64,000 nt of DNA from Acidimicrobiales bacterium (GCA_963662455.3 OZ224042.1:2446953-2510952); one strand, 5' to 3'; shown: positions 3,800-56,123, counted from the stretch's first letter. A program made the numbers and translations. The notes: generated from the letters alone by a model not told the origin.

Positions 3800-4381
3800 A
3801 TGCAGAAGTTTCAACGAGTGTGCGTGTTCTGCGCTTCATCTCCGGGAACTGACCCCGAGATCACCGATGCAACAATCGAACTGGGCGAGCTTCTCGTCGA
3901 GCGCGGCATCGAACTCGTCTACGGCGGCGGTGCGGTCGGGTTGATGGGTCTGATCGCCGACACGGTGATGTCACGCGGCGGGCGTGTCACCGGCATCATC
4001 CCCACCGACCTCTTCGACGACGAGGTCGGCCACGAGAGTCTCACTGCTCTCGAGAAGGTCGATTCGATGCATACCCGCAAAGCGCTGATGTACGAGTTGT
4101 CGGACGCCTTCATCGCCCTTCCGGGCGGCTTCGGCACCCTCGACGAACTTGCCGAGACTCTTACCTGGAACCAACTCGGCATCATGGCCAAGCCTGTCGG
4201 CGTTCTCAATGTCAACGGCTTCTGGACGCCTCTGCTCGACCAGTTCGACAAGATGGTCGACCGCACCATCCTCAAGCCGTCCAACCGCCGGACCCTACTG
4301 GCCGAGGACCGCCCTGTTGCGCTGCTCGACGCGCTCGCCAACCACGGCAACCCCAGCGACCCCAAGTGGATCCAAGCTTAA
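3800..4381 (+). CDS. LOG-family (TIGR00730) nucleotide 5'-monophosphate nucleosidase
   Basis: 193 aa. VCVFCASS, LVYGGGAVGLMG and the diagnostic PGGFGTLDEL motif. Confidence 0.9.
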   Translation: MQKFQRVCVFCASSPGTDPEITDATIELGELLVERGIELVYGGGAVGLMGLIADTVMSRGGRVTGIIPTDLFDDEVGHESLTALEKVDSMHTRKALMYELSDAFIALPGGFGTLDELAETLTWNQLGIMAKPVGVLNVNGFWTPLLDQFDKMVDRTILKPSNRRTLLAEDRPVALLDALANHGNPSDPKWIQA

Positions 4382-4414
4382 CGAGTTCGGCGTACTGAGA
4401 AAACTGGCGACGCG

Positions 4415-7186
4415 TCAGGGAGTGGCGCCCTGGATCGACAGAGTGAAGCCTGGAACCGCGTTCGGCACGAATCGGAACGTCGTCGCCTCGATCGTGTAGG
4501 TGCCAGGCGCCAGCGTTGCCCTGATCCGCGAATTGTTGCCTCTGCCGCCATCGTCGTCGTGATGCAGATAGGGGCCGCTCCGTGCGTCGCTGCCGCGGCG
4601 CAGATACAGAAATGGGTCGTAGCCGGCTTCAAGATCGATCGTCACGAACCTGGGGTTCGGACCCTGCACAGTGAAGGTGAAGAACCGCGCATAAGTGCCA
4701 AGGAATGCCCGCTCAGACGACCAGCAGTCCGGGCCCCATTCGCCCGACACGGTGCCGCCGCCGGCCAGGTCGGACCCGCAGGTCACCGACACAGGATCGG
4801 GGGTTGCCGACCCCGCCCGCGGAGGCGCAGCAGCGGCACCGGCGCCCGACAGCTCCAGCGTGAAGCTGCCTGTTCGGTCCCGCAGGTCCGTCGTCGCCTC
4901 GATCGTGTAGGTGCCAGGCGCCAGCGTGGTGACGATCCTCGCATCGCTGGAAGCACCGCCGCTGTCATCGCTGCTCAGCTGATCCCCCAACCGCACATCG
5001 TCGCCGCGCCGCAAGATCAAGTAGGTGTCCACCGTGGGGATGGAGTACGCATCAAGTTCGGAACGCAGGTTGATCTCCACCTGAGCACGAGACGCCATCG
5101 TGAAGGTGTAATAGCGCGCGTTCCTGCCTGGCCGCGTCGTCGAGACGCATTGGTTGCCCGACCATTGTCCAGCGACCAGCGTGTCGCCGCTGAGCACGAC
5201 GCTGCACGTTCCTGGGTCGCTGTGGGGACTCAGCGCCGTGCCGGTCCTCAGCTCCACGGTGAATTCGCCTCCTAGATTCGGCGAGATCGTCGTGGCCTCG
5301 ATCGTGTAGGTGCCCGCTCGGAGTGTCTCGAGGATCCGAGAGTTCGGGCCGTGGCCTCGTCCGTACGCCCGACGGGACCAATATCCGCTCCTCTCATCAT
5401 CGCCGTCACGCAGATACAGATAGGTATGGACATCGGACCGAAGGTCGATCGCTACGCGTTCCTCGGCGGCCAGCGTGAAGGTGTAGAAGCGCGCTCGGCT
5501 GCCCGCACGCACCGACGAGATGCACTCGGAAACCCACTGGCCCGTGACCACACCGTCCCCGCCGAGCGTCGCGCCGCAGCCGTCGGCACTCGGCACCGGA
5601 TCAGCCGTCACCGGATCGGTCACCGGCACCGGATCAGTCACCGGACCTGGCGTCACGATGGCCGTGACGAGTCCCGACACCTCCAGTTCGAAGTCGCCGG
5701 TTCGCCCTTGGTAAAACGTCGTCGCCTCGATCGTGTAGCTGCCCGCCTCCAGCCGATCCCACAGCCGCGAGTTCGTGCCCGAACCGCCGTCGTCATCACG
5801 GCGCAACACCGGCCCGGACCTCACGTCGCTCCCGCTGCGTAGAAACAGATAGGTGTCCACCGTCGAACTCAGAGCGAACTCCGCCCGCCGCGCCGGCTGC
5901 GACAGCGTAAAGGTGTAAAAGCGTGCTCGACGGCCCGGACGCACCGACGAGTCACAACCGGACGCCCACTCGCCCGTAACCACACCGTCCCCGCCGAGCG
6001 TCGCGCCGCAGCCGTCGGCACTCGGCACCGGATCAGGGGTCACCGGATCGGTCGTCGGCACCGGATCAGGCGTCACCGGATCGGTCGTCGGCACCGGATC
6101 AGGCGTCACCGGATCGGTCGTCGGCACCGGATCAGGCGTCACCGGATCGGTCGTCGGCACCGGATCAGGGGTCACCGGATCGGTCGTCGGCACCGGATCA
6201 GGCGTCACCGGATCGGTCACCGGCACCGGATCAGGCGTCACGACGGCGGCGCCCAGACCTGAGACCCGCAGCTCGAACGCACCGGGTCGTCCCGCTGCGA
6301 ACGTCGTCGCCTCGATGGTGTAGCTGCCCGCCTCCAGCAGATCGCGAAGCCGCGAGTTCGTGCCCGAACCGCCGTCGTCATCATGGCGCAACACCTCACC
6401 GGAGCGCACGTCGCTTCCGCGACGCAGATACAGATAGGTGTCCACCGTCGAGCTCAGACCGAAGTCCACCTGCGTCGCAGCCGCCAGCGTGAACGCATAG
6501 AAGCGCGCAAAGCTGCCCGAACGCACCGTCGAATCACAACCGGACGCCCACTCGCCGGTGACCACACCGTCCCCGCCGAGCGTCGCGCCACAACCGTCGT
6601 CATTCGGCGCCGGCTCGGGATCGCTCACCTGCACCGGCTGGGGCCGTGCAGTGGCTGTGTCGAGACCCGACGCCTCGAGTTCGAAGGCGCCCGTGCGATT
6701 CGAGCTATACGTCGTCGCTTCGATGGTGTAGGTGCCCGGCGCCAACTCGTCAGCGATTCGGGAGTTCGTGCCCGATCCGGAATCGTCGTCGTAGGCGACC
6801 CTCGGGCCCGAGCGGACGTCATCGCCAGACCGCAGGTACAGATAGGTGTCCTGCTCCGAGCGAAGATCGATCTCCACATCAGCTTGTGCGGGCAATGCGA
6901 ACGTATAGAACCGAGCAAAGCTGTCTTGGCGCTGTGTCGACGCACACCCCGCGGCCCACGATCCCGACACCGTGCCATCGCCGGTGAGCACAATCGTGCA
7001 CCCGTCGCCTGATCCCTCGGTTGCGGCGGCCGGCGCAGCCGAAGCCATGGCAGCCACGAGCACTGCGACCGAGAGCGCAGCGCCAATGCGATGCGCTATG
7101 CGACGACTCCTCGAGGTGGAAGCAGAGACCGACCACGGAACCCGTTCGCCGCGGCCGGATGCTTCACATTCGCGCACATGACTCAT
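4415..7186 (-). CDS. secreted protein built from six PPC (pre-peptidase C-terminal)-like ~110-aa domains joined by Pro/Thr/Asp linkers
   Basis: 923 aa with an N-terminal signal-like segment (AALSVAVLVAAMASAAPAAA). A unit recurs six times: C..L..DG.V.G.W...C.S....ARFYTF.L......DTYLYLR.G.DVRSG......DDD.G.G.NSR....L..G.YTIEATT.....G.F.L. No catalytic domain is visible. Confidence 0.8.
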   Translation of the reverse strand: MSHVRECEASGRGERVPWSVSASTSRSRRIAHRIGAALSVAVLVAAMASAAPAAATEGSGDGCTIVLTGDGTVSGSWAAGCASTQRQDSFARFYTFALPAQADVEIDLRSEQDTYLYLRSGDDVRSGPRVAYDDDSGSGTNSRIADELAPGTYTIEATTYSSNRTGAFELEASGLDTATARPQPVQVSDPEPAPNDDGCGATLGGDGVVTGEWASGCDSTVRSGSFARFYAFTLAAATQVDFGLSSTVDTYLYLRRGSDVRSGEVLRHDDDGGSGTNSRLRDLLEAGSYTIEATTFAAGRPGAFELRVSGLGAAVVTPDPVPVTDPVTPDPVPTTDPVTPDPVPTTDPVTPDPVPTTDPVTPDPVPTTDPVTPDPVPTTDPVTPDPVPSADGCGATLGGDGVVTGEWASGCDSSVRPGRRARFYTFTLSQPARRAEFALSSTVDTYLFLRSGSDVRSGPVLRRDDDGGSGTNSRLWDRLEAGSYTIEATTFYQGRTGDFELEVSGLVTAIVTPGPVTDPVPVTDPVTADPVPSADGCGATLGGDGVVTGQWVSECISSVRAGSRARFYTFTLAAEERVAIDLRSDVHTYLYLRDGDDERSGYWSRRAYGRGHGPNSRILETLRAGTYTIEATTISPNLGGEFTVELRTGTALSPHSDPGTCSVVLSGDTLVAGQWSGNQCVSTTRPGRNARYYTFTMASRAQVEINLRSELDAYSIPTVDTYLILRRGDDVRLGDQLSSDDSGGASSDARIVTTLAPGTYTIEATTDLRDRTGSFTLELSGAGAAAAPPRAGSATPDPVSVTCGSDLAGGGTVSGEWGPDCWSSERAFLGTYARFFTFTVQGPNPRFVTIDLEAGYDPFLYLRRGSDARSGPYLHHDDDGGRGNNSRIRATLAPGTYTIEATTFRFVPNAVPGFTLSIQGATP
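6024..6240. repeat. 33-bp in-frame tandem repeat, ~6.5 copies, encoding (PVTPDPVPTTD)n
   Basis: The unit ggcaccggatcagg(g/c)gtcaccggatcggtcgtc starts at 6024, 6057, 6090, 6123, 6156 and 6189, with a partial copy at 6222. It lies inside the PPC-repeat CDS. Confidence 0.9.
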
Positions 7187-16715: not shown

Positions 16716-16799
16716 TTGTTGTCAATCCTACTGTGCGTCCGTGACACGGCTGCCGGACTAAGCGTTCACAAACACTCACGACCCCCGTTTCCGGGAGTG

Positions 16800-16900
16800 A
16801 CGGCCAGGCAATCTGCGGCACACAGGCGGCTCCGCTGAGAGCTGCTGCCTTCCGGCCCTGACCCGGTTCACGGACACCTGTTGCACAGGACCCGACCGCC
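16800..16900 (-). ncRNA. ffs: signal recognition particle RNA (small bacterial type); ends approximate
   Basis: The minus strand reads ...CCGGGUCAGGGCCGGAAGGCAGCAGC..., matching the conserved domain IV / GGAA tetraloop region of bacterial SRP RNA (E. coli GGUCAGGUCCGGAAGGAAGCAGC). Flanking arms are complementary. The position upstream of dnaX is the usual one. Confidence 0.7.
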
Positions 16901-16968: not shown

Positions 16969-17056
16969 GGAGGGTTGCCAGAGCGGCCGAATGGGCACGC
17001 TTGGAAAGCGTGTGAGGTGCAAGCCTCCGTGGGTTCAAATCCCACACCCTCCGCCA
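16969..17056 (+). tRNA. tRNA-Ser (anticodon GGA), class II with long variable arm, CCA encoded
   Basis: Acceptor stem GGAGGGT/ACCCTCC. Anticodon stem-loop CACGC-TTGGAAA-GCGTG. T arm GTGGG-TTCAAAT-CCCAC. Discriminator G followed by CCA. Confidence 0.95.
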
Positions 17057-35039: not shown

Positions 35040-35362
35040 AAACTTGCGTCGAGCGGCCCCACCTAAGCAGCAACAACCTCACCGGACACGTCAACGCACC
35101 CGCCTACGTTTCCGACGCTTCACCCGCTACCGAATCCGAGCGTTGCCTTATGCCGGCAAACCTCACTGGTGACCGCTCAACTCGCCGCGCATCTCCGAAA
35201 ACCCCAAACCCTCATCGGTCGTTGTCACACCTGACTCGTACATTCCTGGTATGCGAGTACGACAGTCGCGGGACCATCAAATGACTTCGACCACCTGCTA
35301 TCGTTGCTGGATGCCGACTCTCCGCGACAACGCAAGTCGGCTTGTGTCAGCGCCTCCACACG

Positions 35363-37909
35363 ATGATGACTGCTAACAGGCTCACCGAAGCTTTCCGAGA
35401 GCTGGGCTATGAGAAAGCGCTGTGCCAGCGTCGCGTAGGTTCCCCTGCCAGCAAGGTAGTCGCCGATGTCGTGGCGTTCACCCAAGACGCCCCCCAAGAC
35501 CTACGAACTAGTGCGATAGCTGGCTTCACCGCCCCTGGAGACGATATCAGTGAGTTGCTGAGTGCCGCGCGTCTGTTGGCCACACCGTTTGCCTTGATCG
35601 AGCGGTTAAACGGCACTCTCGACTTGTATGAAGTCAAGTCAACGGGAGAATCGCCAAGCCGAATCCGAGGGCCGATCGCGCCAGCGCAGATTCGTGAATT
35701 GAGAAGTTCCAAGCTGGCAACCGAACTTGCTCCGAGGGCAATCCGCGCAGCCAAAGCGGGAATGCGCCAGTTGACGCTGTTCCCGATAGATGCGAGGCTG
35801 CTCGTAGAGGCACGCAGCAAATCAGTGGATTCGATTAGTGCGCGGATGAAACACTCGTTCCACCACGCGTTGGAGGAGAAGATTCAGCCTACGAGCGCAG
35901 CAAGACTCGTGATCGAGTCCCTTGCCGCGGCAATCGTCCGAGACAAGTACCAGCTAGAGCGCATCACTGGCGGCCGTATCGTTGATGGTGTATTGACACG
36001 GCACGGCGAGTATTTTGAAAACCTCGCAAGGTGGCAGAGCAAGCACCCTGAACTGGTTGAATCGACACTCCGCGAACTTGGGGACAACGTGGACTACTCG
36101 GCAATCGATGCGCGCACGATCAACGCTGTTTACGAGGAACTCTTTCTTACGTCGGAGCTACGCAGTGAATTTGGTATCTATCACACGGATCAACGGTTTG
36201 CATCGCGGATTCTTGACCATCTGCCGATCGAGGAAATCCCACCCGAAGATCGGTATGTCGTTGATCCTGCGTGCGGGGCGGGCAATCTCCTACTCGCCGC
36301 CCAAGAGCGGTTAGAGAACATTTCGCCAGGCCGATGGTCGGCCAGAACGACCCACGACTGGCTCAAGACCCACATGTACGGAGCGGATATTGAACCGATC
36401 GCGGTGGAGATCGCGAAGCTCTCTCTCTTAGTCTCGTCGTTGCCCCTGGGGAACTCATGGCAGATAGAACAGCGGGATTCCCTTGAGGAAACCCCCTGCT
36501 TTGGGTCGCCTCCTACGATCTGGGTGACTAATCCACCTTGGCAGCAGTCCCTGGGCTCAAATGACGAGCGGGCAATCCGGTTTCTTGACAGTGCCATCGG
36601 CCAGCTAGCTGATGGGGGATTGCTGGCGTGCATTCTACCCGCCTCTTGGTTGAGCTCAACTGGGCACAAGAAGTCGCGACTTGACGTCGACCGGAGATGC
36701 AGCGTGTTCGAGGTGTGGAGGCTACCCAGAGACCTGTTTCGCGAAGCCCGCCACCCATCCGCAGTGGTTTTTGCACAGAAACTGAGGACCGTCCAGCGCT
36801 CGAACTTTGCGTTCCGCTGGGTGACCGCATCCAAGGCGCACCGGGAGTCATTTCTCGACAGGGGTGCCGCGCAGTTCCAGTCCACCGAAATCCCTCCACT
36901 ACGTCGGGCGTTCACAGGCGGCCCCGTCGACGTTCTCGCAGCGTCAGGCATCACCGTGGAGAAAGTCGCGATTGTGACGTCAGGCCAGGTGCAAACTGGT
37001 AAGCCGTGTCCCGTTCCTTCGGGTGAGGGTACACCCGTCCTCGCACGCGGCACAAAGGCGCCGATCCACCGTTCCATCGGGCGTGAGTTGATCACCTGGG
37101 TGGCCGACCCAAGGGACAACTTCCGACTCGCTGATGGATGGGAGACCATCCTGGATGACAGTCCGAAACTGCTCGTTCAAGCCAACCGATTTCAGGACAA
37201 CGCTTGGCGGCTACGTCCGATCCTCGACACAACCGGAGTCCTCCCTTCCAACTCATGGCAGACGCTCTCTGGCAAACCGCAGACCATATGGGCGCTCAAT
37301 GCATTTTTGTCCACATCAATCGCATCGTGTTTTGTTCATTCTCACTCAACAACCGGACGAATCCGTGTCGATTTGCTAGAAGAAATCCCACTGCCAGCCA
37401 AATGGACTCAGCACTACGAGAAATTGTTCGCGGTACTGGGAGAGCAAATGGCCGAACCGACATCGGACCTCGCATCACTGGTCGACAAGGCAGAACTGTT
37501 GGCGTACCAAGCGTTCGAATTGGATGACGCTATGAAAGCGTCGATCCAACGGGTCATGGCCGAATACAAGGCGCCTGACGGAAGAGTCCGTTTCCCCGAG
37601 GTTGTGGAACGCGAAATTGGAGATGCGCGCCTCGAACCGTTTAGTCAGGCCCCCGGTACGGTGCTAGGCGTCGAACGCACATCGGTCCAGGTATGGGTGC
37701 TCGGAGGGCCCGATGACGGTTACACCGTCGATCTGCACGAAGGCATACCCGGATGGCTTCTCAAAAAGGATGCAACATTCGAGTTGACCGGCCACCCGGA
37801 CACAGGGCGTTACCGGTTCCATCGGTCCGCCCATCTCTCAGACTACGTAGCACTTGGAATGCACAACGGCCTCGACCCGGCCACAAGTGAACGCTCGAAT
37901 CCGCAGTAA
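35363..37909 (+). CDS. large gamma-class N6-adenine methyltransferase of type IIG/IIL or BREX-PglX-like architecture
   Basis: About 848 aa from ATG 35363. Motif I is YVVDPACGAGNLLLAAQ. Motif IV is IWVTNPPWQQS. About 300 aa precede the MTase core, including a possible D...(D/E)xK (ADVVAF ... LDLYEVKS). About 450 aa follow it and are TRD-like. Confidence 0.8.
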   Translation: MMTANRLTEAFRELGYEKALCQRRVGSPASKVVADVVAFTQDAPQDLRTSAIAGFTAPGDDISELLSAARLLATPFALIERLNGTLDLYEVKSTGESPSRIRGPIAPAQIRELRSSKLATELAPRAIRAAKAGMRQLTLFPIDARLLVEARSKSVDSISARMKHSFHHALEEKIQPTSAARLVIESLAAAIVRDKYQLERITGGRIVDGVLTRHGEYFENLARWQSKHPELVESTLRELGDNVDYSAIDARTINAVYEELFLTSELRSEFGIYHTDQRFASRILDHLPIEEIPPEDRYVVDPACGAGNLLLAAQERLENISPGRWSARTTHDWLKTHMYGADIEPIAVEIAKLSLLVSSLPLGNSWQIEQRDSLEETPCFGSPPTIWVTNPPWQQSLGSNDERAIRFLDSAIGQLADGGLLACILPASWLSSTGHKKSRLDVDRRCSVFEVWRLPRDLFREARHPSAVVFAQKLRTVQRSNFAFRWVTASKAHRESFLDRGAAQFQSTEIPPLRRAFTGGPVDVLAASGITVEKVAIVTSGQVQTGKPCPVPSGEGTPVLARGTKAPIHRSIGRELITWVADPRDNFRLADGWETILDDSPKLLVQANRFQDNAWRLRPILDTTGVLPSNSWQTLSGKPQTIWALNAFLSTSIASCFVHSHSTTGRIRVDLLEEIPLPAKWTQHYEKLFAVLGEQMAEPTSDLASLVDKAELLAYQAFELDDAMKASIQRVMAEYKAPDGRVRFPEVVEREIGDARLEPFSQAPGTVLGVERTSVQVWVLGGPDDGYTVDLHEGIPGWLLKKDATFELTGHPDTGRYRFHRSAHLSDYVALGMHNGLDPATSERSNPQ

Positions 37910-44777: not shown

Positions 44778-46789
44778 TCACGCTCGATTGAGTTGGGGGA
44801 GGCCGGTGCCGGTGACGGTGACGACACCTTCCACGAATAGCGTGCGACCGTTCAAGTCGATGGACTTCTCGTCCCAGAGGGTCTCCATTTCAAACTCTGG
44901 CGCGCCCGCAACAGTCATCGCCGCGCCCACCGCTGAGCGGGCATGGTCGATCGCAGCTTGTTTGGCCTTTTCAAGCTCGAAGAATGACTCAGGTTCAGAG
45001 CCCACATGGACTCGATACAGTCCTCTGCGCGGCGCTGAAACGGTGAAACGACGACGGATACGAACCTTGCCCACCGCAGCACCAACCGCGTTCGCGACAT
45101 CGGCGTTTTCTGGGATCTGCACTTTTGTGCCGAGCAGCTCGCCGATCGCCGCGTAGTAGGCAGCAGCCGGAGCGCCGAGACCGACCAGCGGAACGGCCAG
45201 ACCGGCCACCAGCTTGGAGGCGCGAAGTTTGCCGTCAAGCGCCGCCGTCACCACTTCGGACGTCGCGGCAGACTCAGACAGGCCGTCGCTTGAGAACGCC
45301 ATCGCCAGCAGTTTCTCAGCCGACAGCCGTACCAGTTTCGCCACGACAGCCTCAGCGAATTCTCTCGGCGTACCAACGATCATCTTGCCGCGATGGTCGC
45401 ATCGCCGAGACCAGACTTCAGCGGCCACCTGTGCAACCAGCGGATCATGGGTCGTCTGCTCGCCGAGCACATGGGCGGCATCGGTCGGCGTGAACGCCGA
45501 CACACGCAACGCACCGCGAGCAGCCAGACGCCTCAACGCCAGAGCATCGCGACTCCCCTCAACAACGGCATCCGCCAGAACAACCTGCCCCCCGATTCGT
45601 TCCATCAACTGACGTTCGACACGGTCCAACGAAACTTCATCGGCTCCAGCTGCCGGTTGCAGAAAAACGGCGCTCCATTCCTGAGGAGCCGTGTCGGCGT
45701 TGAGTTGGCGCCTCAGTTGTGACGACAGGAAGTCGCCGTGGTCCTGGGCTAGGACCACCAGCGGAATCACACGCCGGGGGCCGACCACCAAGTCGGGTCC
45801 GTGCGCACGGTCCGCGAGCGTCACCTCGCTGTCACCACCGATGCCGTGTGTCGCCATTGCAAACGCTTCAACCATAGTTCGATGCCCGCCGACCGTGGCT
45901 CCTTTGGGGTCGAAGCCGGACACCCCGTCACGCAGGACCGCGATATCGGTCGTCGTGCCGCCGATGTCGGAGATGATGGCATCTCCTGCACCCACAAGGT
46001 GCTCTGCGCCGAGCACGCTCGCTGCCGGTCCGGACAAGATGGTTTCAACGGGGCGTTCCCGAACGAAATCCGCCGACACCAACGAACCGTTGCCTCGCAC
46101 CACCATGATCGGAGCTTCAACCCCCAGGTGGGCGAGTACACCTGTGGTCGCAGACAACAGTTCATCGATCAATGAAATCATTCGGGCGTTGAGCAGTGCT
46201 GTGACCGACCGTTTGGGGCCGTTGAGTGCGTCGGACAACTCGTGGCTGCAGGTGACCGGCAGACCGGTGCGCTCCCGGATCAAGTCTCTGGCAGCGATCT
46301 CGTGGTCGGGGTTGCGCACACTGAACTGTGAGGTGACCGCGAATCCTTCTACCAGAGGCGCCGTCTCTGAAACGGCCGCGCTCAGCGCGTCGACGTCGAG
46401 CGGTTCGGCTTCGGCTCCGTGTGGGGTGTGTCCTCCGGCGACCAGCACCACCGAGTCACTGCCGATCGTTTCGCGCAAACCGCCCCTGTCGAGAATCGCC
46501 TCTTCAAAACCGATCATCACCAACGCAGCCGGACGACCCTGCCTTCAACCAGAGCGTTGGTTGCCAGCGTGCTCGACAATGAAACAAAGCTGACCGCGTT
46601 CGGATCAACCGACGCGACGATGAGCACCCGTTCGATCGCCTGACCGATACCGACAGCAAGATCGTCATGGGTTGTGGGTGCTTTGGCCTTGCCCAACAGA
46701 GCACCCGAGGCCTCGTCGTAGACGACCGCGTCGGTATAGGTGCCGCCGGTATCAACACCAAGAATCAAACGACCTGCTGAAACTGGCAT
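44778..46789 (-). pseudogene. hydantoinase/oxoprolinase-family (HyuA-like) gene split by a 1-nt frameshift
   Basis: The N-terminal ORF 46517-46789 (LGVDTGGTYTDAVV...STLATNALVEG) continues in another frame as (GRPAAL)VMIGFEE... in ORF 44778-46523. The junction is at ~46535-46545. Confidence 0.75.
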
Positions 46790-46988
46790 GCCCCGTTATT
46801 CTGCCCTACCGACAGCCACGCCGCGATCATAGCGGTTACAGACCTTTTGCTACTACTGAATTCCACTGACACGTCAACCCTCCTGCACGAACCGAAATGA
46901 TTCAAGATCCACCGTTTCAGGCTGTGCTCCCGTACCATTGCGATTACGTGGTCCCAGGCAGCGGGGCCGACAACATGAGGAGTCTCTG

Positions 46989-48407
46989 ATGAGGATCTTG
47001 CCGGACGTCACCCCTACCGATGAGCAGCTCAAGATCATCGGTGACGTAAAGCCTGGATTCCGAATAATCAGAGGTGCAGCCGGCAGCGGAAAGACCACAA
47101 CAGCTCTACTATGCCTGCGCCAGCTAGTAGTTGCTCGACTCAAGCGGCGGCAACGTCATGGGCACGAATCGCCGGTGCGGGTGCTGGTGCTCACTTTCAA
47201 CCGCACCCTCGAGGGCTACATCTCTGAACTTGCCCGCAACTGTGTACCTGACGATGATGCGCTGGATCTAACGACCAGCACTTTCGCTCGCTGGGCTAGG
47301 ACGATGGTGGGCGATGCAGACATCGCCGACCGCTATCAAGAATCGGCGATGATTCGCCCACTCCTGCAATCGTTCGTCACTTCAAAACAGGACCAATTCT
47401 TCACCGACGAAGTCGCCTACATCCTGGGTCGTTTCGACCCGGGTAACCGCTCCGAGTACCTCTCCGTAGTCCGGCAGGGTCGAGGACTCAATCCCCGGGT
47501 CAACCGTCCGCTCAGAGAGAAACTGCTCCAAGATGTGCTCCCGGCATACGAGGAAGCCAAGGCCGAGCGCGGTCTAATCGACTGGAACGACCTCGCAGTG
47601 CTCGCTGCGGACGCCCAACTTGGGTTCAGCTACGACGTTGTGATCGTCGACGAAACGCAGGACTTCTCTGCCAATCAGGTTCGGGCCATTACCCGGCACC
47701 TTCAAGACTCCCACAACACCACCTTCATCATTGACGCGATGCAGCGCATCTATCCCCGGTACTTCACCTGGCGCGAGGTGGGCGTAACCGCACGACCCGA
47801 GATCATCCATACCCTCAAAGAGAACTATCGCAACACCGAAGCCATCGCAGCCTTCGCCATTCCCCTCGTTGATGGACTCCCAGCAGAAGACGACGGAACA
47901 GTACCAGACTTCACCGCGTGCAGTCGCTCGGGTGCAACTCCTTTAGTCGTCGAGGGCAAGTACAATCAGCAACTCCAAATCATGCTGGATCGTCTCACGC
48001 AGATCACTGACTTCTGCACAGAGTCCATCGCCATACTCCAACCTCGCGGCGGTGGCTGGTTCAGCGAAACGCGGAAAGCTCTCCAGAATCGGGGGCTAGC
48101 GTTCTGCGAGCTAGCCCGTGAGAACGAGTGGCCTTCGGGCCCCGAGGTCGTCGCCCTATGCACTATCCACTCGGCCAAGGGCCTCGAGTTCGACCATGTG
48201 CTTCTTCCCGGCCTCAGCCAACAGGTCACACCGCACGGTCCCGAAGACGGCGATGCAGACCTCGATCGATTGCGTCGCATGTTGGCGATGGCCATCGGGC
48301 GCGCCCGCAAATCAGTCATGGTCGGCTACAAGCCAGGCGAGGAGTCGTCCTTGATCGGATTGCTCGACTCTTCCACCTACGAGCTTGTCAAGGCGCAGAC
48401 ACCATGA
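46989..48407 (+). CDS. compact UvrD-like SF1 helicase / AAA_19-type ATPase
   Basis: 472 aa from ATG 46989, with GAGGAG 6 nt upstream. GAAGSGKTT (Walker A), VIVDETQDFS (motif II), ENYRNT, TIHSAKGLEFDHVLL, AIGRARKSV. Confidence 0.85.
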   Translation: MRILPDVTPTDEQLKIIGDVKPGFRIIRGAAGSGKTTTALLCLRQLVVARLKRRQRHGHESPVRVLVLTFNRTLEGYISELARNCVPDDDALDLTTSTFARWARTMVGDADIADRYQESAMIRPLLQSFVTSKQDQFFTDEVAYILGRFDPGNRSEYLSVVRQGRGLNPRVNRPLREKLLQDVLPAYEEAKAERGLIDWNDLAVLAADAQLGFSYDVVIVDETQDFSANQVRAITRHLQDSHNTTFIIDAMQRIYPRYFTWREVGVTARPEIIHTLKENYRNTEAIAAFAIPLVDGLPAEDDGTVPDFTACSRSGATPLVVEGKYNQQLQIMLDRLTQITDFCTESIAILQPRGGGWFSETRKALQNRGLAFCELARENEWPSGPEVVALCTIHSAKGLEFDHVLLPGLSQQVTPHGPEDGDADLDRLRRMLAMAIGRARKSVMVGYKPGEESSLIGLLDSSTYELVKAQTP

Positions 48408-49090
48408 GTTGGGCACCTGAAGCGGTCCCACAATCTGAGACAGAAGTGCGTGATGAGCCACGCTGCCCCGAGGTCGTCAATGCCGCTGTTGAACGCGGCA
48501 TTACCAGCATCGTTCATTTCACCCGTGCCCGTCCCGGGCTTATCGGCATTCTCGACAGTTCCGCAGTCAAAGCCCGGCGAGATCTGCCCGAAGACGTACG
48601 ACTACGACACGTGTACGAAGACAACGCAGCTGACAGAAGCCGGGACTGCCTTTGGCATGGCTATGTCAACCTCTCCATAACAGACATCAACGAATGGATG
48701 TTCCGGGCATCGAAGAAGTGGCACACGGAGGCCGAATGGGTGATCCTTGATTTCAGTCCAGAAATCCTGGGCGACCCTGGGGTTGTGTTCTGCACTACTA
48801 ACAACGCCTACCCGACCGCCCATCGTCACGCGGGGCTTCGAGGCTTCGCTCAGATGTTCGCCTCGATGGTCCCTGGATACCAGGGTCTCGGTAGCACTCG
48901 CAGCGTCCGAGACCCGAATCAGACCACAGACCACCAAGCAGAAGTCCTTTATCCGTCTGCTCTCTACCTCGACTACCTCCAGTCGATTATCGTTGGGAAT
49001 GAGGGCACGTGCGACACCGTAGAAGCGGCACTAGCCCACTCTCCGCATCACGCTCCCAACATCGCCATCGCACCGGAGGCGTTCGAGTGA
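48404..49090 (+). CDS. DarT/DUF4433-like ADP-ribosyltransferase (H-Y-E class), putative DNA ADP-ribosylating toxin
   Basis: 228 aa. The ATG overlaps the helicase stop (ATGA). ITSIVHFTRARPGLIGIL (His), HGYVNLS (Tyr), VVFCTTNNAY, DHQAEVLYPSALYLDYLQSIIV (catalytic Glu). The order and spacing match DarT. Assignment is by eye only. Confidence 0.65.
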   Translation: MSWAPEAVPQSETEVRDEPRCPEVVNAAVERGITSIVHFTRARPGLIGILDSSAVKARRDLPEDVRLRHVYEDNAADRSRDCLWHGYVNLSITDINEWMFRASKKWHTEAEWVILDFSPEILGDPGVVFCTTNNAYPTAHRHAGLRGFAQMFASMVPGYQGLGSTRSVRDPNQTTDHQAEVLYPSALYLDYLQSIIVGNEGTCDTVEAALAHSPHHAPNIAIAPEAFE

Positions 49091-50718
49091 CCAAGACAAC
49101 CCCAAACTCGCTGGAACAGGCAAACCTCTTCCATGACTCTGATACCGACCGGGATGCGCGCACTCGTAGCTCGATGCTGTGGGCCGCGTATGGTGATGCG
49201 CTGGGTTTCATAAGCGAACTGGTAGACGGAAAAAGCCTGAGGCGCAGGACTAAGGGTGCAGCACTTGACCGTCTGATGCCCTGGAGTCGAAGGGTTGGTG
49301 GACGGAGAGGCGTCAACGTGCAACTCCCGGCCGGGTGCTGGTCTGACGACACCCAGCTTCGAACTGCGGTGGGCCGCTCAATCACCAGCGACGGTTTCGA
49401 CGTCGACACCTTTGCCCGAGTGGAGCTACCCGTCTGGCCCTCATATGCGCTCGGTGGTGGTCGCGCCTCCAAAGCTGCAGCCAAGAACCTTGCGACACAC
49501 AGCACGCTGTGGTACGCCAACACCTTCTCCGGCTGTTACGACGCTGGAGGCAACGGTGCCGCCATGCGGATCCAACCCCATGTCTGGGCATCCCCGGATC
49601 TCGAAGGGGCGTACTTGCTAGATGTGATCACCGACAGCATCTGCACTCACAGCCACCCTAGAGCAATCGTCGGTGCATGCTTCCACGCTTCAACTCTGGC
49701 ACACTGCTTGCGGACCGGTTCTTCTCCAACCCTGGACGAGTGTTTGGAGATCGCGAGAAGCCTGGACGGCACCCTCTCACTGATCAAAGAGCATCAGAGC
49801 TTGAGCAGCGTCTGGCTTGGCCTATGGGAGAGATCGACCAACGAGAATTTCCACGACCAGTGGCAGACAACGGTCAGCGAACTGTGCGAGGCCGTCCACC
49901 AAGCTCGCGCTGCCGTCAACTGCACAGGGGGCCTCGCTGACGTCTACCAGGCAGTCTGTGAGAACCTCGAACTCTATGCAGAACATCAAAGGGGCAGTGG
50001 CATTCTCACCCCCGTTGCGGCCGCAGCCTTGGCTATGGTCGCCCCCGACCCCCATGAAGGAATGGTGGTTGCAGCCAACGAACTAAGAACCGACACCGAC
50101 ACCATCGCCACAATGGCTGGTGCGTTGCTCGGTGCCTGTCATCCCGGTGAGCACCCCCCTGAAGAACCTCTTGACAGCAACTACCTGCTTTATGAAGCTG
50201 ATCGCCTGACAGTCGTGTCTCAGGGGAGCCGGACCGACAATCACCATTACCCCGACATCCTGACTTGGGCTGCGCCGCAAACCCAGGCCGATGCGCTGGT
50301 AACTGACGACGGCCAGCTCGCCGTGGAGGGTCTCGGGCCAGTGAAGGAACTGGATGACGAATTGTTATGGTCACCCCGCAAAGACTTCGCCTGGCAGTGG
50401 GTCCAAACGGAATTCGGCCAAACACTCATCATCAAGCGCCGTCCCGAAGTCCGCTCCCGCACAGCCGGCAACACCCTCGAACCGCCGCCCGCCGCCTCGT
50501 CCTCCCACAAGACACCCGAAACGAACGGCCAGGCGCCTCGCCCGGGAAACCTGCCACTTGACCGCGGTCTCAACATAGACGGAGCCGTCGAACACGCCCT
50601 GGAGCACATCAACGACGACTCAAGGATCGGCTACACCGTCCGACGCACCGCGCGGGACGGAACGATCAACGACCTCGTCGCCTTGGTGACATCCATCCGA
50701 GACGACCTGCGCCGCTAA
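49087..50718 (+). CDS. ADP-ribosylglycohydrolase (ARH/DraG fold) with ~200-aa uncharacterised C-terminal extension
   Basis: 543 aa from GTG 49087, which overlaps the preceding stop as GTGA. MLWAAYGDALGF, AGCWSDDTQLR, GAAMRIQP, DTDTIATMAGALLGA. Confidence 0.8.
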   Translation: MTKTTPNSLEQANLFHDSDTDRDARTRSSMLWAAYGDALGFISELVDGKSLRRRTKGAALDRLMPWSRRVGGRRGVNVQLPAGCWSDDTQLRTAVGRSITSDGFDVDTFARVELPVWPSYALGGGRASKAAAKNLATHSTLWYANTFSGCYDAGGNGAAMRIQPHVWASPDLEGAYLLDVITDSICTHSHPRAIVGACFHASTLAHCLRTGSSPTLDECLEIARSLDGTLSLIKEHQSLSSVWLGLWERSTNENFHDQWQTTVSELCEAVHQARAAVNCTGGLADVYQAVCENLELYAEHQRGSGILTPVAAAALAMVAPDPHEGMVVAANELRTDTDTIATMAGALLGACHPGEHPPEEPLDSNYLLYEADRLTVVSQGSRTDNHHYPDILTWAAPQTQADALVTDDGQLAVEGLGPVKELDDELLWSPRKDFAWQWVQTEFGQTLIIKRRPEVRSRTAGNTLEPPPAASSSHKTPETNGQAPRPGNLPLDRGLNIDGAVEHALEHINDDSRIGYTVRRTARDGTINDLVALVTSIRDDLRR

Positions 50719-50727
50719 GATTGTTCG

Positions 50728-51051
50728 ATGCCTCGCAGTACGCGTCCCGACATGACTGGGTATGGGGTTGTCGAGGATCCTGAAGGGCTGTTGGACTGGG
50801 AGTGGGCGGAGCAGCGTCTGCTTGCCGAACGCAACTTCTGGTTCGTGACCGCCGACGCCGGGGGCCGACCGCATTCAATGCCGGTCTGGGGTGTTTGGAT
50901 GCCCGAACGCGAACGTTTTGGGATGTGCTGCTATGCCGGGGCGCGCAAGGCGCGCAACATCGGTGACAACGATCAAGTCGTCGTCACCACGACCAACAGC
51001 GTTGAATGCGTTTCAATTGAGGGACGTGCGGTCAATCCGCGCACGTTCTAA
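50728..51051 (+). CDS. pyridoxamine 5'-phosphate oxidase-family protein, possibly 3'-truncated
   Basis: 107 aa. NFWFVTADAGGRPHSMPVWGVW...KARNIGDNDQVVV...VSIEGRA. It is shorter than usual for the fold and overlaps the convergent nitroreductase end by 4 nt. Confidence 0.55.
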   Translation: MPRSTRPDMTGYGVVEDPEGLLDWEWAEQRLLAERNFWFVTADAGGRPHSMPVWGVWMPERERFGMCCYAGARKARNIGDNDQVVVTTTNSVECVSIEGRAVNPRTF

Positions 51052-51697
51052 GGCCAGAGGGGCTCGTTGACTTCTGCACCGAGCGGAGTACCCCAGCTGT
51101 TGCGGTACGACACCTCGTGCGCAGGCAGTCGCCTAGCGGTGCCCCACATCCCGGTCGGGTAACCCATGGGGACACAGCAGGCCATCCGCCAGCCCTCATC
51201 CTCAGGAACGTTGAGAACCTCAAGGGTTTCGTCGTTCTTGAACAAGAGCACACTCGTCAGCGACGAGCCCACACCTTCGGCACGGGCAGCCAACATGGCG
51301 CTCCAGACGGCCGGGAAGATTGATCCGCCTGTCGTATCGAACTTGTCGAACGCGAACAACAACAACGGGTACGTCGCAAAGTTCTGTTGCGCCCAGGTCA
51401 CCGACTCGATGATTCTTGAGAACTGGCGAGATTCAGGAGTGTCCCCGGCTGCCGCTTCCGCAACTCGGTCCTTGTAGACAGTCTCCCACAACATGTCGAT
51501 GCAGTCCGAGTAAAGCGTTCCGATCTTGGTGATCTGCTCGCGTCGTCCACGAGCAGAAAACGCCATGCTTGGCTGTTGCCTCCGCTCGGGGCCCGGATCG
51601 CGGCGTCAAGCAAGCGCAACTGGACCTCTTCAGGGATCGGGTCGGGTTTGACCCGTCGCATCGCCCTCGTCGTATACAACGCCTCACGAATATCCAT
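51048..51697 (-). pseudogene. nitroreductase-family gene with a 1-nt frameshift
   Basis: Starts at ATG 51697 after GGGAGGAA. MDIREALYTTRAMRRVKPDPIPEE...APSGGNSQAWRFLLVDD then loses frame. The remainder (REQITKIGTLYSD...CCVPMGYP) is ORF 51048-51566. The junction is at ~51538-51550. Confidence 0.75.
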
Positions 51698-51743
51698 CGT
51701 TTCCTCCCGGCTCGGTTCTAGTACTCGCAAACAGTTTCTAGTA

Positions 51744-51796
51744 TCCTTCGCAAACGACTGGAAGTTGAATTCCTTCGCAAACGACTGGAAGTTGAA
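51744..51796. promoter_or_regulatory. two exact 26-nt direct repeats (TCCTTCGCAAACGACTGGAAGTTGAA), 27-bp period, in the divergent promoter region
   Basis: Copies at 51744-51769 and 51771-51796. They end 8 nt before the SLH/RCC1 gene ATG (51804). A related CTCGCAAACAG flanked by TTCTAGTA repeats lies just upstream, at 51716-51743. Confidence 0.5.
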
Positions 51797-51803
51797 ATTG
51801 ACA

Positions 51804-54023
51804 ATGAAAAAACCACTGATTTGGGCAGCTTTCATTTTAGCTCTCGCGGCACTACCCAACGTTGCAGCAGTGCCTGCAGCGGGAGTTGCCGGCTACGGCG
51901 ACGTCGAACCCGACAGGTATTACACCAAACCCGTTCAATGGGCTGTCAATTCAGGCATAACCAAAATCCCCGGGGCCTGTTTCGAGCCACATGCCAATGT
52001 CTCGCGTGGTGAGACCGCAAAATATTTTTGGAACATGCAAGGCCAACCGTCTGCGACCACCCATTCGTTCACCGACATCACCGACAGCTCGCAGAACGCG
52101 GCGATTTCCTGGATGGCTGCAACCAGGATCACTACCGGCACATCACCGACCACATTCTCCCCCGACAGCACCTTGACCCGCGCCCAGGTGGCGGCTTTCC
52201 TGCACCGACTGGCAGGAGAACCGTCCGCTCCAGCGCATTCATTTTCTGATGTCCGGACAAACTGGCAGCAAGTGCCGGTCTCGTGGCTCTCGTCAAGGGG
52301 GATCACTACCGGCACATCACCAACCACATTCTCCCCCGACAGCACCTTGACCCGCGCCCAATTGCTCACTTTCCTCTACCGCTACATGAACGAGCCCGAC
52401 GTCACCGTGGATCCCTCAAACCCAGTTTGCCGCGACGACATGAGCACGAGCTACACGCAGGTCAGCACCGGCGAAACGCACTCATGCGCCATCCAAACCA
52501 GTGGTTCGGTCAGCTGCTGGGGTTTGAACAACTTCGGGCAGTCCAACGCACCCGACGGCAGTTTCTCCTCAGTTGATGCGGGTTACGGACACACCTGTGC
52601 GATCACCACAGACGGTGCCGTCTCCTGCTGGGGCGACAACCGATTCGGGCAGTCCAACGCACCCGACGGCATGTTCAGAAGCATCACAGCGAGTGCCACT
52701 CATAGTTGCGCGATCCGCGTCGACGGTTCGATCTCGTGCTGGGGTTCGAACACCTCCGCGCAATTGGACGCGCCCAGCGGAACCTTTACGAGCATCAGCG
52801 CTGGTGGATTCCACACTTGCGCAATTCATGCGAGTCACACGGTCAGTTGTTGGGGAGACAACGACAATGGACAGACAGACTCTCCCCAAGGAACGTTTTT
52901 GTCCGTTGCTGCGGGTGGAGACCATAGTTGCGCGATCCGCATCAACGGCACCGCTGTCTGCTGGGGTTGGAACGAATCCGGCCGACTCGACGCCCCTCAA
53001 GGCAACTATAGAACAATCGCCGCCGGCTCCGACTATTCCTGCGCTATCGGGCGCGGCGACAACGCTGTCTGCTGGGGAGCCGACCGTTTCGGTGAGGCTC
53101 GAAGCCCGGCCGGCAACTACAGCGCGATTGCCGCAGGACGCTTTCACACCTGTGCTGTCACCACCAACGGTGCTCTCTCGTGCTGGGGCAACAACGAATC
53201 CGGGCAAGCAACCCCACCGCACGGTGGTTACACCGTTGTCGCGTCAGGGACTCAACAAAGTTGTGCGATCGATGTGAACAACCGTGTCATCTGTTGGGGG
53301 CCCGACTTGAACGACCTGGCAAGTCCACCGCATGACAACTACACCACCATCAGTCTCGGTGCTGACCATGCCTGCGGAATCCTGACAGACGACGCCATAT
53401 CGTGTTGGGGCAGCAACGAATACGATCAAGCCGGCGATCCGACAGGCAGCTACAAGGTCGTCGCCACTGGCGGCTGGCACAACTGCGCGATAGGGGACAA
53501 CGGCGCGATCAGATGTTGGGGTGTCAACCACTTCGGTCAAGCGTGGCCTGTACCGCAAGCCCCTGACGCGCAATCACACTATCGCGACATAACCGCCGGT
53601 GCCCACCACTCATGCGTGATTACGGCCGACGATCAGGTTGAATGCTGGGGCAACAACGAATCCGGGCAAGCAACACCACCAGGGACAGGGACCTACAAAG
53701 CAATCAGCGCAGGAACAGTCCACACGTGCGCTGTCACCGAATCAGGTGATGTCGAATGCTGGGGCAACAACGAATCCGGGCAAGCAACACCACCAGGGAC
53801 AGGGACCTACAAAGCAATCAGCGCGGGGCACGCTCACACGTGCGCTGTCACCGAATCAGGTGATGTCGAATGCTGGGGCAACAACGAATCCGGGCAAGCA
53901 ACACCACCAGGGACAGGGACCTACAAAGCAATCAGCGCGGGGCACGCTCACACGTGCGCTGTCACCGAATCAGGTGATGTCGAATGCTGGGGAGACTTGA
54001 AGATCCGGCTTCCGGCCAGCTGA
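51804..54023 (+). CDS. cell-surface protein: signal peptide + three SLH domains + multi-blade RCC1-repeat beta-propeller
   Basis: Start at ATG 51804 (MKKPLIWAAFILALAALP). The SLH units are ITTGTSPTTFSPDSTLTRAQ(V/L)..FL(H/Y)R. More than 15 RCC1-like repeats follow (H(S/T)CAI...G...CWG.N..GQ). Confidence 0.85.
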   Translation: MKKPLIWAAFILALAALPNVAAVPAAGVAGYGDVEPDRYYTKPVQWAVNSGITKIPGACFEPHANVSRGETAKYFWNMQGQPSATTHSFTDITDSSQNAAISWMAATRITTGTSPTTFSPDSTLTRAQVAAFLHRLAGEPSAPAHSFSDVRTNWQQVPVSWLSSRGITTGTSPTTFSPDSTLTRAQLLTFLYRYMNEPDVTVDPSNPVCRDDMSTSYTQVSTGETHSCAIQTSGSVSCWGLNNFGQSNAPDGSFSSVDAGYGHTCAITTDGAVSCWGDNRFGQSNAPDGMFRSITASATHSCAIRVDGSISCWGSNTSAQLDAPSGTFTSISAGGFHTCAIHASHTVSCWGDNDNGQTDSPQGTFLSVAAGGDHSCAIRINGTAVCWGWNESGRLDAPQGNYRTIAAGSDYSCAIGRGDNAVCWGADRFGEARSPAGNYSAIAAGRFHTCAVTTNGALSCWGNNESGQATPPHGGYTVVASGTQQSCAIDVNNRVICWGPDLNDLASPPHDNYTTISLGADHACGILTDDAISCWGSNEYDQAGDPTGSYKVVATGGWHNCAIGDNGAIRCWGVNHFGQAWPVPQAPDAQSHYRDITAGAHHSCVITADDQVECWGNNESGQATPPGTGTYKAISAGTVHTCAVTESGDVECWGNNESGQATPPGTGTYKAISAGHAHTCAVTESGDVECWGNNESGQATPPGTGTYKAISAGHAHTCAVTESGDVECWGDLKIRLPAS
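53640..53981. repeat. 114-bp in-frame tandem repeat x3 (copies 2 and 3 identical), each encoding one RCC1 blade
   Basis: Units at 53640-53753, 53754-53867 and 53868-53981. Each encodes ECWGNNESGQATPPGTGTYKAISAG..HTCAVTESGDV. Confidence 0.9.
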
Positions 54024-54043
54024 CTTCCCATCCAAGGGCCCCA

Positions 54044-54928
54044 TCAAACCGGAGTGACGATGAGGCATTCCTCCGGGCCGATTTCGTACACGTTGCCATC
54101 GGAACCGACAAGCTGCGTCGGGAAACAAACCATGTAAGGTCGCCCGAGCGCCCAAGCTGCGTCTTCGGCTCTGCGATACCTCTCGAATTCGTCCGGGTCT
54201 GAAGGTGTGGTCGGATAGTTGACAACAATCATTGGCACTGGATCGTCATCCGAGCCCGTGCTCGTGTCAGTGAACTCGTCATTGAAGTCGTCGATTTTAG
54301 CCAATTCTTCCCGGGTGCGTGGTGACGTTTCCCATTCGTGAGTTGAAGTTGAGCCGTCGTCACTGTTGTGAATAGTGACCGAATCAGAAGTCACCGACAC
54401 AGTGACGACGTTCTCATTCGGGCGGTCAGCACATGTCAGAGTCGGTTGCGACGGACAGGGGTAGCCGAGGCTGTTGTCGGTGGTTGAGTCTTGTGTTTGC
54501 TGCGTCGAATCCACCGGGGCTGTGGCGGTGGGCGTTTGTTGGTCGTTGTCCGGCTGCACAACCGTGTTCGAGAGGGTCGCGCCAGAGATCTGCACCGAAG
54601 AAGGCGTCGAATCCGCCAACTCGAAACTGAACGAGTAACAATAAGACGAATCCGAACAAGAGAAGCTGATTCGGAAATCGGTTGTACCACCAGTCGCGAT
54701 CGTCACACTGATCGGTTCACCGCCCGAATCTGCGTAGTTGAACCCGAGAGTGGCGCCATCGCCTACTGGTTGGTCAGAGGACAGTGAACACACTGCCGTC
54801 GAACCATCGGCGACTGTGCATGTCACACTCAATTGAGCGGACCCTGTCCCCTCCTGAGCCGACACTGGGGACAGCCCCGCTACCGAAAACAGAAAACCCA
54901 CTCCTAAAACCGCTAACACTCGCCTCAT
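54044..54928 (-). CDS. secreted hypothetical protein (Ser/Thr/Asp-rich)
   Basis: Start taken at ATG 54928 after AAGGAGAG. Signal peptide MRRVLAVLGVGFLFSVAGLSPVSA. No family is recognised. Confidence 0.7.
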   Translation of the reverse strand: MRRVLAVLGVGFLFSVAGLSPVSAQEGTGSAQLSVTCTVADGSTAVCSLSSDQPVGDGATLGFNYADSGGEPISVTIATGGTTDFRISFSCSDSSYCYSFSFELADSTPSSVQISGATLSNTVVQPDNDQQTPTATAPVDSTQQTQDSTTDNSLGYPCPSQPTLTCADRPNENVVTVSVTSDSVTIHNSDDGSTSTHEWETSPRTREELAKIDDFNDEFTDTSTGSDDDPVPMIVVNYPTTPSDPDEFERYRRAEDAAWALGRPYMVCFPTQLVGSDGNVYEIGPEECLIVTPV

Positions 54929-55046
54929 GAATCTCTCCTTTGCTTCCTGGGAAGTCAAGCTTTACCGTAGACAACCAACAAGTCTAGTGCTTTTGTTGAA
55001 TTTTCTGTTCCAATACCGAATCAGTCCGCGGCCGGCAGCGGAGAGT

Positions 55047-56123
<1,077 letters not shown>

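Follow-up and report, generated by a model that had tools for sequence, protein, structure and literature searches.

A 64,000-nt stretch of DNA from an uncultured Acidimicrobiales bacterium (GCA_963662455.3, OZ224042.1:2446953-2510952; referred to below as the window, along which all coordinates are counted) harbors three intact + strand genes at 46989-50718, which code for a helicase (DarH), a DarT-family ADP-ribosyltransferase (ART), and a protein of the ADP-ribosylglycohydrolase (ARH) fold (DarG3). In all likelihood, this trio is a chromosomal Acidimicrobiia member of DarHTG, a three-gene anti-phage system of the toxin–antitoxin type, because it agrees with the trio found in E. coli in gene order and in the three domain types, its catalytic motifs are intact, and its proteins are homologous to those of E. 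coli over their full length. With this assignment, DarHTG is extended to Actinomycetota (Acidimicrobiia) and Planctomycetota. The features of the operon are as follows:

46977-46982, +: Shine–Dalgarno-like GAGGAG, 6 nt 5' of the darH start ATG at 46989 (sequence reading)
46989-48407, +: darH, 472-aa UvrD-like superfamily 1 (SF1) helicase without a 2B domain (Pfam, PADLOC, motifs)
48404-48407, +: ATGA, in which the darH stop and the darT start overlap; translational coupling (sequence reading)
48404-49090, +: darT, 228-aa DarT-family ADP-ribosyltransferase (Pfam, conserved residues, structure–sequence match)
49075-49079, +: GGAGG 5' of the darG3 start (sequence reading)
49087-49090, +: GTGA, in which the darT stop and the darG3 start overlap (sequence reading)
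49087-50718, +: darG3, 543-aa ADP-ribosylglycohydrolase (ARH fold at aa ~18-378) with a C-terminal extension (Pfam, AlphaFold2, Foldseek)
50248-50301, +: conserved linear motif YPDxLTWxxPQTQADALV, DarG3 aa 388-405 (alignment and model)
50296-50439, +: small five-stranded beta domain, DarG3 aa 404-451 (predicted models)
50575-50712, +: C-terminal three-helix bundle, DarG3 aa 497-542 (models, pLDDT, i.e., predicted local distance difference test, >90; no Pfam match)

This layout had been read from the nucleotide sequence in a preliminary description, and it stands: the two overlaps couple the genes exactly as described there, all the peptide motifs quoted are found in the translations, the neighboring genes are metabolic, and the helicase, DarT, and ARH assignments are each matched in Pfam (UvrD-helicase, PF14487, and PF03747). 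The finer readings, i.e., an H-Y-E signature of the DarT type in gene 2 and an ARH fold followed by an unassigned C-terminal region in gene 3, were borne out as well by the results given below.

All three genes are under purifying selection: in comparison with the two closest relatives, the helicase gave a ratio of nonsynonymous to synonymous substitution rates (dN/dS) of 0.11-0.17, DarT one of 0.20-0.39, and the ARH protein one of 0.17-0.23. Given these values and the hundreds of homologs of the trio proteins in the databases, the genes are real and do not represent chance open reading frames (ORFs). The promoter and terminator scan returned no more matches than in shuffled controls, and the Rfam search gave no match near the operon.

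Relation to the Known DarHTG System

DarHTG was documented by Liu et al. (NAR, 8 April 2026; PMC13069673) under the title [quoted passage not shown], preceded by a bioRxiv preprint of December 2025 (10.64898/2025.12.08.692795) in which the system is called “TgaH-DarTG”. Designated Liu-DS3, it comprises DarH (UvrD-like, without a 2B domain), DarT, and the antitoxin DarG3, which resembles archaeal and eukaryotic ADP-ribosylglycohydrolases, unlike the macrodomain and NADAR DarGs (PMC13069673). The system protects E. coli from T4, T5, T7, and SSL_2009a with an abortive-infection-like phenotype, and the defense requires the active site of DarT and the ATP-binding residues of DarH; a DarG3 mutant could not be made, as expected of an antitoxin (PMC13069673). 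DarHTG is found in <0.5% of E. coli genomes, being commoner in Thermodesulfobacteriota and Bacteroidota (PMC13069673).

Among 5426 complete E. coli genomes, a single kind of helicase–DarT–ARH trio was encountered: a chromosomal copy, present in 21 genomes (0.39%), to which the DNA of the Salmonella trio is 99.9-100% identical. A more sensitive DNA search of the complete E. coli genomes revealed no second allele of it. Since its frequency fits the published value and it is the only such trio there, the identity of the E. coli trio with the tested Liu-DS3 construct is a well-supported inference. The window proteins align with those of E. coli/Salmonella (WP_000699006, WP_000151475, and WP_001087212) over 468 aa at 43% identity (helicase; E 3e-128), over 207 aa at 35% identity (DarT; E 3e-38), and over 440 aa at 40% identity (ARH protein; E 9e-103).

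The likeness to DarHTG thus comprises three adjacent co-oriented genes in the order helicase–DarT–ARH; an SF1 helicase of the UvrD family that has no 2B domain and whose ATP-binding residues are intact; a DarT with the catalytic glutamate E180, aligned to E152 of DarT1; an antitoxin of the ARH fold, i.e., neither a macrodomain nor NADAR; and the layout of the DarG3 tail (motif, beta domain, linker, three-helix bundle), which is that of the E. coli trio. The differences concern the gene junctions, with overlaps of 4 nt in the window vs. gaps of 0 and 9 nt in E. coli, and the host, an uncultured member of Acidimicrobiia whose chromosomal, non-island locus is known here from sequence alone.

Several points weigh against this assignment. 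The window proteins match their E. coli counterparts at only 35-43% identity, and the experiments were confined to E. coli. The equation of the E. coli trio with Liu-DS3 was deduced and not drawn from published Liu-DS3 sequences; which base DarHTG targets, what its hydrolase acts on, and what its helicase does are likewise deduced. Furthermore, the trio sits among metabolic genes without flanking repeats, an integrase, or a tRNA, which is atypical for a defense island, and both its flanks are common to the closest relative (locus L001) at ~82% DNA identity. Since mobile marks are lacking and the flanks are shared with the closest relative, some room is left for a domesticated or physiological role, considered below together with the genomic neighborhood.

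The preliminary description knew of no characterized helicase–DarT–ARH module and put the trio forward as a candidate new system, naming an existing system of exactly this composition among the findings that would speak against it. DarHTG, experimentally validated, has the same three components (PMC13069673), and the novelty claim is superseded, because the composition is identical and the homology to the E. coli trio is full-length. Older resources would not name the trio, since their models miss it or score low: PADLOC 2.0 (2023) has no model matching gene 3 and matches gene 2 with its DarT model weakly (2e-7), and the NCBIfam toxin_DarT equivalog gives 17.6 bits against a cutoff of 150, so the window DarT is a non-standard one. 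Still, with DarHTG published in 2025-2026 and the window proteins being full-length homologs of the E. coli trio, the C-terminal layout of DarG3 included, it is scarcely credible that the trio represents a previously undescribed kind of system. The literature search found no description of a helicase–DarT–ARH trio other than DarHTG; apparent matches to a prior description in a Vibrio preprint were superscript artefacts. At the same time, the predicted DNA-ADP-ribosylation toxin–antitoxin or anti-phage module holds up via the DarT1 match and the ARH fold of DarG3. A three-component DNA-ADP-ribosylation defense system, named and validated shortly before, was correctly rebuilt by a reader who had only the sequence.

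The DarT Toxin

The product of darT matches PF14487 with E 1.6e-22 and 80.6 bits (cutoff 22.5) over profile positions 2-200 of 201. Its key residues include H38 (in HFT), R78, Y87-x-N89-x-S91, N133 and Y136 (in TTNNAY), and the catalytic E180 (in QAE); H38, R78, N89, S91, N133, Y136, and Q178-A179-E180 are invariant in 18 trio DarT homologs. The sole solved structure matched was that of DarT1 from E. coli C7 (8BAQ), with E values of 5.7e-5 (single-sequence query) and 2.6e-16 (profile of the trio DarTs), and no DarT2 structure was matched in the same search at E <= 1. In the alignment to DarT1, E180 corresponds to E152 (E152A in 8BAQ), N133 to N104, and M100 to M71, and the invariant R78 falls 2 positions off R52 in the hidden Markov model alignment. 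The active-site residues of the guanine-specific DarT1 are R52, M71, N104, and E152, of which E152 is catalytic and N104 coordinates the base, a position taken by His119 in the thymidine-specific DarT2 (PMC11543638). Judging by the structure match and these residues, the window DarT appears closer to the guanine-specific DarT1 than to DarT2, and guanine seems a more likely target base than thymine, since the protein resembles DarT1 and Asn replaces His at the base-coordinating position.

The nearest two-gene counterpart in terms of the toxin is DarTG1 (DarT1 with the NADAR antitoxin DarG1, E. coli C7; PMC11543638), which contains the nearest solved DarT and shares with the trio the catalytic Glu, the base-coordinating Asn, and the toxin–antitoxin/anti-phage logic. 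The window trio differs from it in that the antitoxin has the ARH fold and not that of NADAR, an obligatory helicase gene is added, and the guanine specificity is deduced; gene 3 matches only ADP_ribosyl_GH in Pfam, and no NADAR gene adjoins it. In the DarTG2 systems of Thermus, M. tuberculosis, and enteropathogenic E. coli, DarT2 is likewise combined with an ADP-ribose-removing antitoxin bearing an extra C-terminal region, the macrodomain DarG2. The window trio, in contrast, has no macrodomain according to Pfam, carries Asn instead of His at the base-coordinating position, and gives no match to DarT2 structures at E <= 1.

The DarG3 Antidote and Its Tail

The Pfam family PF03747 (ADP_ribosyl_GH) covers aa 30-354 of DarG3 with E 1e-31. 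The AlphaFold2 model of the protein (pLDDT 76.9) contains an ARH domain at aa 18-378, which Foldseek relates with probability 1.0 to human ARH3, MJ1187, DraG, ARH1, and Tri1. Across 44 ARH homologs, no variation was seen in the metal-binding and catalytic motifs (D37, E44, S86-D87-D88-T89, and D336-T337-D338), nor in many residues of the C-terminal part.

The close structural neighbors of gene 3 raise the question of a protein-directed pair of the DraT-DraG or Tre1-Tri1 type, in which the product of gene 2 would modify Arg or Ser of a protein (such as a phage protein or the helicase), with the ARH enzyme undoing this modification and DNA being no substrate. Indeed, the structures closest to DarG3 are those of ARH3, DraG, ARH1, and Tri1, the characterized ARH-fold hydrolases all act on protein-linked, phosphate-linked, or free ADP-ribose, and the table of known hydrolases in PMC12945103 contains no ARH enzyme removing ADP-ribose from a nucleobase. 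Such pairs (DraT-DraG, Tre1-Tri1, and the Listeria ART-ARH pair 8ZA7) also resemble the trio in encoding the ARH hydrolase beside the ART it reverses. Their ARTs, however, modify proteins, belong to other ART clades, and have no helicase partner. In the window, gene 2 is clearly of the DarT family, the residues with which it would coordinate the base and abstract the proton are aligned to their DarT1 equivalents, and its fixed partner is a DNA helicase, which makes a protein-directed pair very improbable.

No Pfam family was found on DarG3 aa ~355-543 (~190 aa), and a search with the C-terminal region at E <= 10 gave nothing meaningful. This tail nevertheless displays a recognizable organization. 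The linear motif at aa 388-405, in which Y388, P389, D390, W394, P397, Q400, and D402 are invariant, is kept in the homologs from Phycisphaerae, Salmonella/E. coli, Streptomyces, and Cereibacter, and it is predicted to be disordered in the monomer (pLDDT <50 at aa 389-401). In macrodomain DarG, the C-terminal domain binds the toxin; by analogy, the motif of DarG3 is a reasonable candidate for a docking segment that would engage DarT or DarH. The beta domain is possibly SH3-like: Foldseek of a dedicated C-terminal model gave no significant match, the best one (E 0.08) being an L2 SH3-like design, and neither this domain nor the helix bundle was assignable to a known fold. A variable low-complexity linker (aa 462-493) precedes the helix bundle. 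The whole arrangement of motif, beta domain, linker, and helix bundle recurs in the E. coli/Salmonella, Streptomyces, Cereibacter, and Phycisphaerae proteins.

The ARH C-terminus differs in the more distant trios of Ralstonia (L022, 3920-5722) and Shinella (L023, ~3815-5527), which lack both the YPD..W.PPQTQ motif and the beta domain and have a tail similar to a glyoxalase/VOC-like domain. Hence, the antitoxin tail appears to be modular.

The DarH Helicase

DarH matches the Pfam families UvrD-helicase (6.4e-12), UvrD_C (1e-11), and AAA_19 (2e-7). Its motifs comprise Walker A (G29-AGSGKTT37), DExQD (221-225), QRxY (252-255), NxRNT (279-283), TxHSAKGLEFD (392-402), and RAR (438-440); Walker A and motifs II-VI are invariant in seven trio helicases from four phyla. 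Motif V follows motif IV (NYRNT) after only ~110 aa, compared with ~270 aa in PcrA, which reflects the missing 2B domain of DarH. Identity with HelD/HelR, PcrA, or RecB was rejected, all the NCBIfam scores being far under the cutoff.

In PADLOC, DarH matches a NERD+UvrD candidate (1.4e-21) and many GajB models, with E values from 1e-21 to 1e-6. The defense helicases of this kind (Gabija GajB, NERD+UvrD candidates, Nhi, AbiO) indeed have the SF1/UvrD core in common with DarH. The matches, however, span the shared motor motifs only, DarH is much shorter (472 aa), and its partner is an ART toxin and not a nuclease. The Gabija helicase is thought to sense DNA ends. Gabija itself was rejected, as only motor motifs match GajB and no GajA-like gene (OLD-family nuclease) is found nearby.

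In RefSeq/PGAP, the helicase homologs of E. coli AR_0128 (L021, 12001-13398) and Streptomyces (L019, 1870-3270) bear the label “3'-5' exonuclease”. This label was rejected for the window protein, whose Pfam matches include no exonuclease domain; the product name is probably misleading and hides the system in annotations.

Distribution and Conservation of the Trio

The order helicase–DarT–ARH is kept in all of the 23 related loci, which represent Acidimicrobiia, Phycisphaerae, Streptomyces, Cereibacter, Ralstonia, Shinella, and Salmonella/E. coli and span four phyla. The DarT query recovered 17 genome loci, each with the helicase, DarT, and ARH genes in the same order; these include a trio from a metagenome-assembled genome (MAG) of Phycisphaerae, with 47%, 45%, and 39% identity to the window proteins. 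The closest match to the window came from a Candidatus Aldehydirespiratoraceae MAG. The junctions are overlapping or a few nt long nearly everywhere: between darH and darT, the Acidimicrobiia loci L001-L016 feature the same overlap as the window or a gap of <=8 nt, and between darT and darG3 an ATGA or GTGA overlap is found in most of the related loci. Thus, the trio holds together very stably from phylum to phylum, the helicase being its most constrained part.

The helicase is the most conserved of the three proteins in comparison with L001 (92% identity vs. 82% for DarT and 84% for the ARH protein; dN/dS of 0.11, 0.39, and 0.17, respectively). Its top rank holds across loci L001-L017, which is unexpected for a recently added accessory.

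Outside Acidimicrobiia, the trio is frequently met in a mobile context. It is plasmid-borne in Salmonella, Streptomyces, Cereibacter, Ralstonia, and Shinella; in E. coli AR_0128 it is situated in an island rich in integrases and insertion sequences (IS), adjoining ychF, and in Streptomyces it adjoins Tn7-like TnsA and transposase genes. The integrase, IS, and Tn7-like setting in E. coli, Salmonella, and Streptomyces counts for a defense role, since such surroundings are usual for defense cargo.

Proposed Mode of Action

A single translationally coupled mRNA would yield DarH, DarT, and DarG3 in fixed ratios. With NAD+ as the donor, DarT is expected to attach ADP-ribose to a base of single-stranded DNA, guanine being likelier than thymine. 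In the uninfected cell, the Mg-dependent ARH domain of DarG3 would hydrolyze the adduct and so restrain DarT; DarG3 probably also holds DarT and/or DarH, using the conserved motif and the domains of its tail. As a minimal SF1 motor that has no 2B domain, DarH would spend ATP on phage replication or recombination intermediates, where it may either expose single-stranded DNA to DarT or act as an infection sensor that frees the latter. The modified DNA would then block replication.

Taken jointly, these suggestions lead to a tentative model, somewhat doubtful as a whole, in which DarG3 is the first ARH-fold enzyme to reverse nucleobase ADP-ribosylation (probably N2-guanine modified by the DarT1-like toxin), the conserved but disordered YPDxLTWxxPQTQxD motif together with the beta and helical tail is a switch, keeping DarT and/or DarH tethered as long as the 2B-less helicase has not engaged phage DNA, and the Acidimicrobiia module may additionally be domesticated as a stable chromosomal regulator. 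For the mechanism of the family, the window trio provides two hints: guanine as the candidate target, suggested by the DarT1-like Asn, and the DarG3 tail motif with the two small domains as candidates for partner binding.

Genomic Neighborhood and a Possible Physiological Role

The neighbors of the trio code for a hydantoinase/oxoprolinase, a flavin reductase, a PNPOx-like protein, and a nitroreductase, as well as an SLH/RCC1 surface protein; ordinary metabolic genes and one N6-methylase are located farther out. Neither a tRNA nor an integrase was found near the trio in the window, and the repeat search revealed no flanking direct or inverted repeats; a single 30-nt inverted pair with 70% identity was unconvincing as a mark of a mobile element.

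The same biochemistry might in this lineage of Acidimicrobiia serve an endogenous regulator of replication or growth, or an addiction module. [quoted passage not shown] A physiological role is also on record for actinobacterial DarTG: as outlined in PMC12170906, the ADP-ribosylation that M. tuberculosis DarTG reversibly imposes on single-stranded DNA controls replication and gene expression. On the other hand, the flanks of the window trio differ from those of the other 14 Acidimicrobiia loci, homologs elsewhere reside on plasmids and in IS- and integrase-rich islands, and the sole experimental data for this architecture concern phage defense. A purely endogenous function is therefore rather unlikely, and a defense or toxin–antitoxin module remains the default reading over a physiological one.

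Upstream of the trio by ~9 kb, an 855-aa ORF (35342-37909, +) combines an N6_Mtase with an MmeI-like methyltransferase domain; its product may be a restriction–modification enzyme of type IIG/IIL or a methylase of the BREX kind, and it is the only other defense-like gene seen near the trio. Several genes closer by are interrupted or short. The hydantoinase gene falls into two frames (46517-46789 and 44778-46523, -), two ORFs (51398-51859 and 51048-51566, -) each carry a part of the nitroreductase, and the PNPOx-like ORF (50728-51051, +), which begins 10 nt past the darG3 stop, has only 107 aa. The interrupted flanking genes are either pseudogenes or indel errors of the long-read MAG assembly.

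The surface protein encoded at 51576-54023 (815 aa) combines SLH domains with 12 RCC1 repeats. Its gene and the ORF 54044-54958 (window ~51703-55047) are absent from the otherwise syntenic L001, so this region is a lineage-specific insertion adjoining the operon. At 51744-51796, either upstream of the SLH/RCC1 gene or at its start, there is a perfect 26-nt tandem direct repeat, TCCTTCGCAAACGACTGGAAGTTGAA, in two copies 1 nt apart. Far from the operon, the window contains the ordinary housekeeping bacterial small signal recognition particle (SRP) RNA (16799-16897, -; Rfam RF00169, 76.7 bits), adjoined by tRNA-Ser(GGA) at 16969-17056 (+), another housekeeping gene unrelated to the trio.

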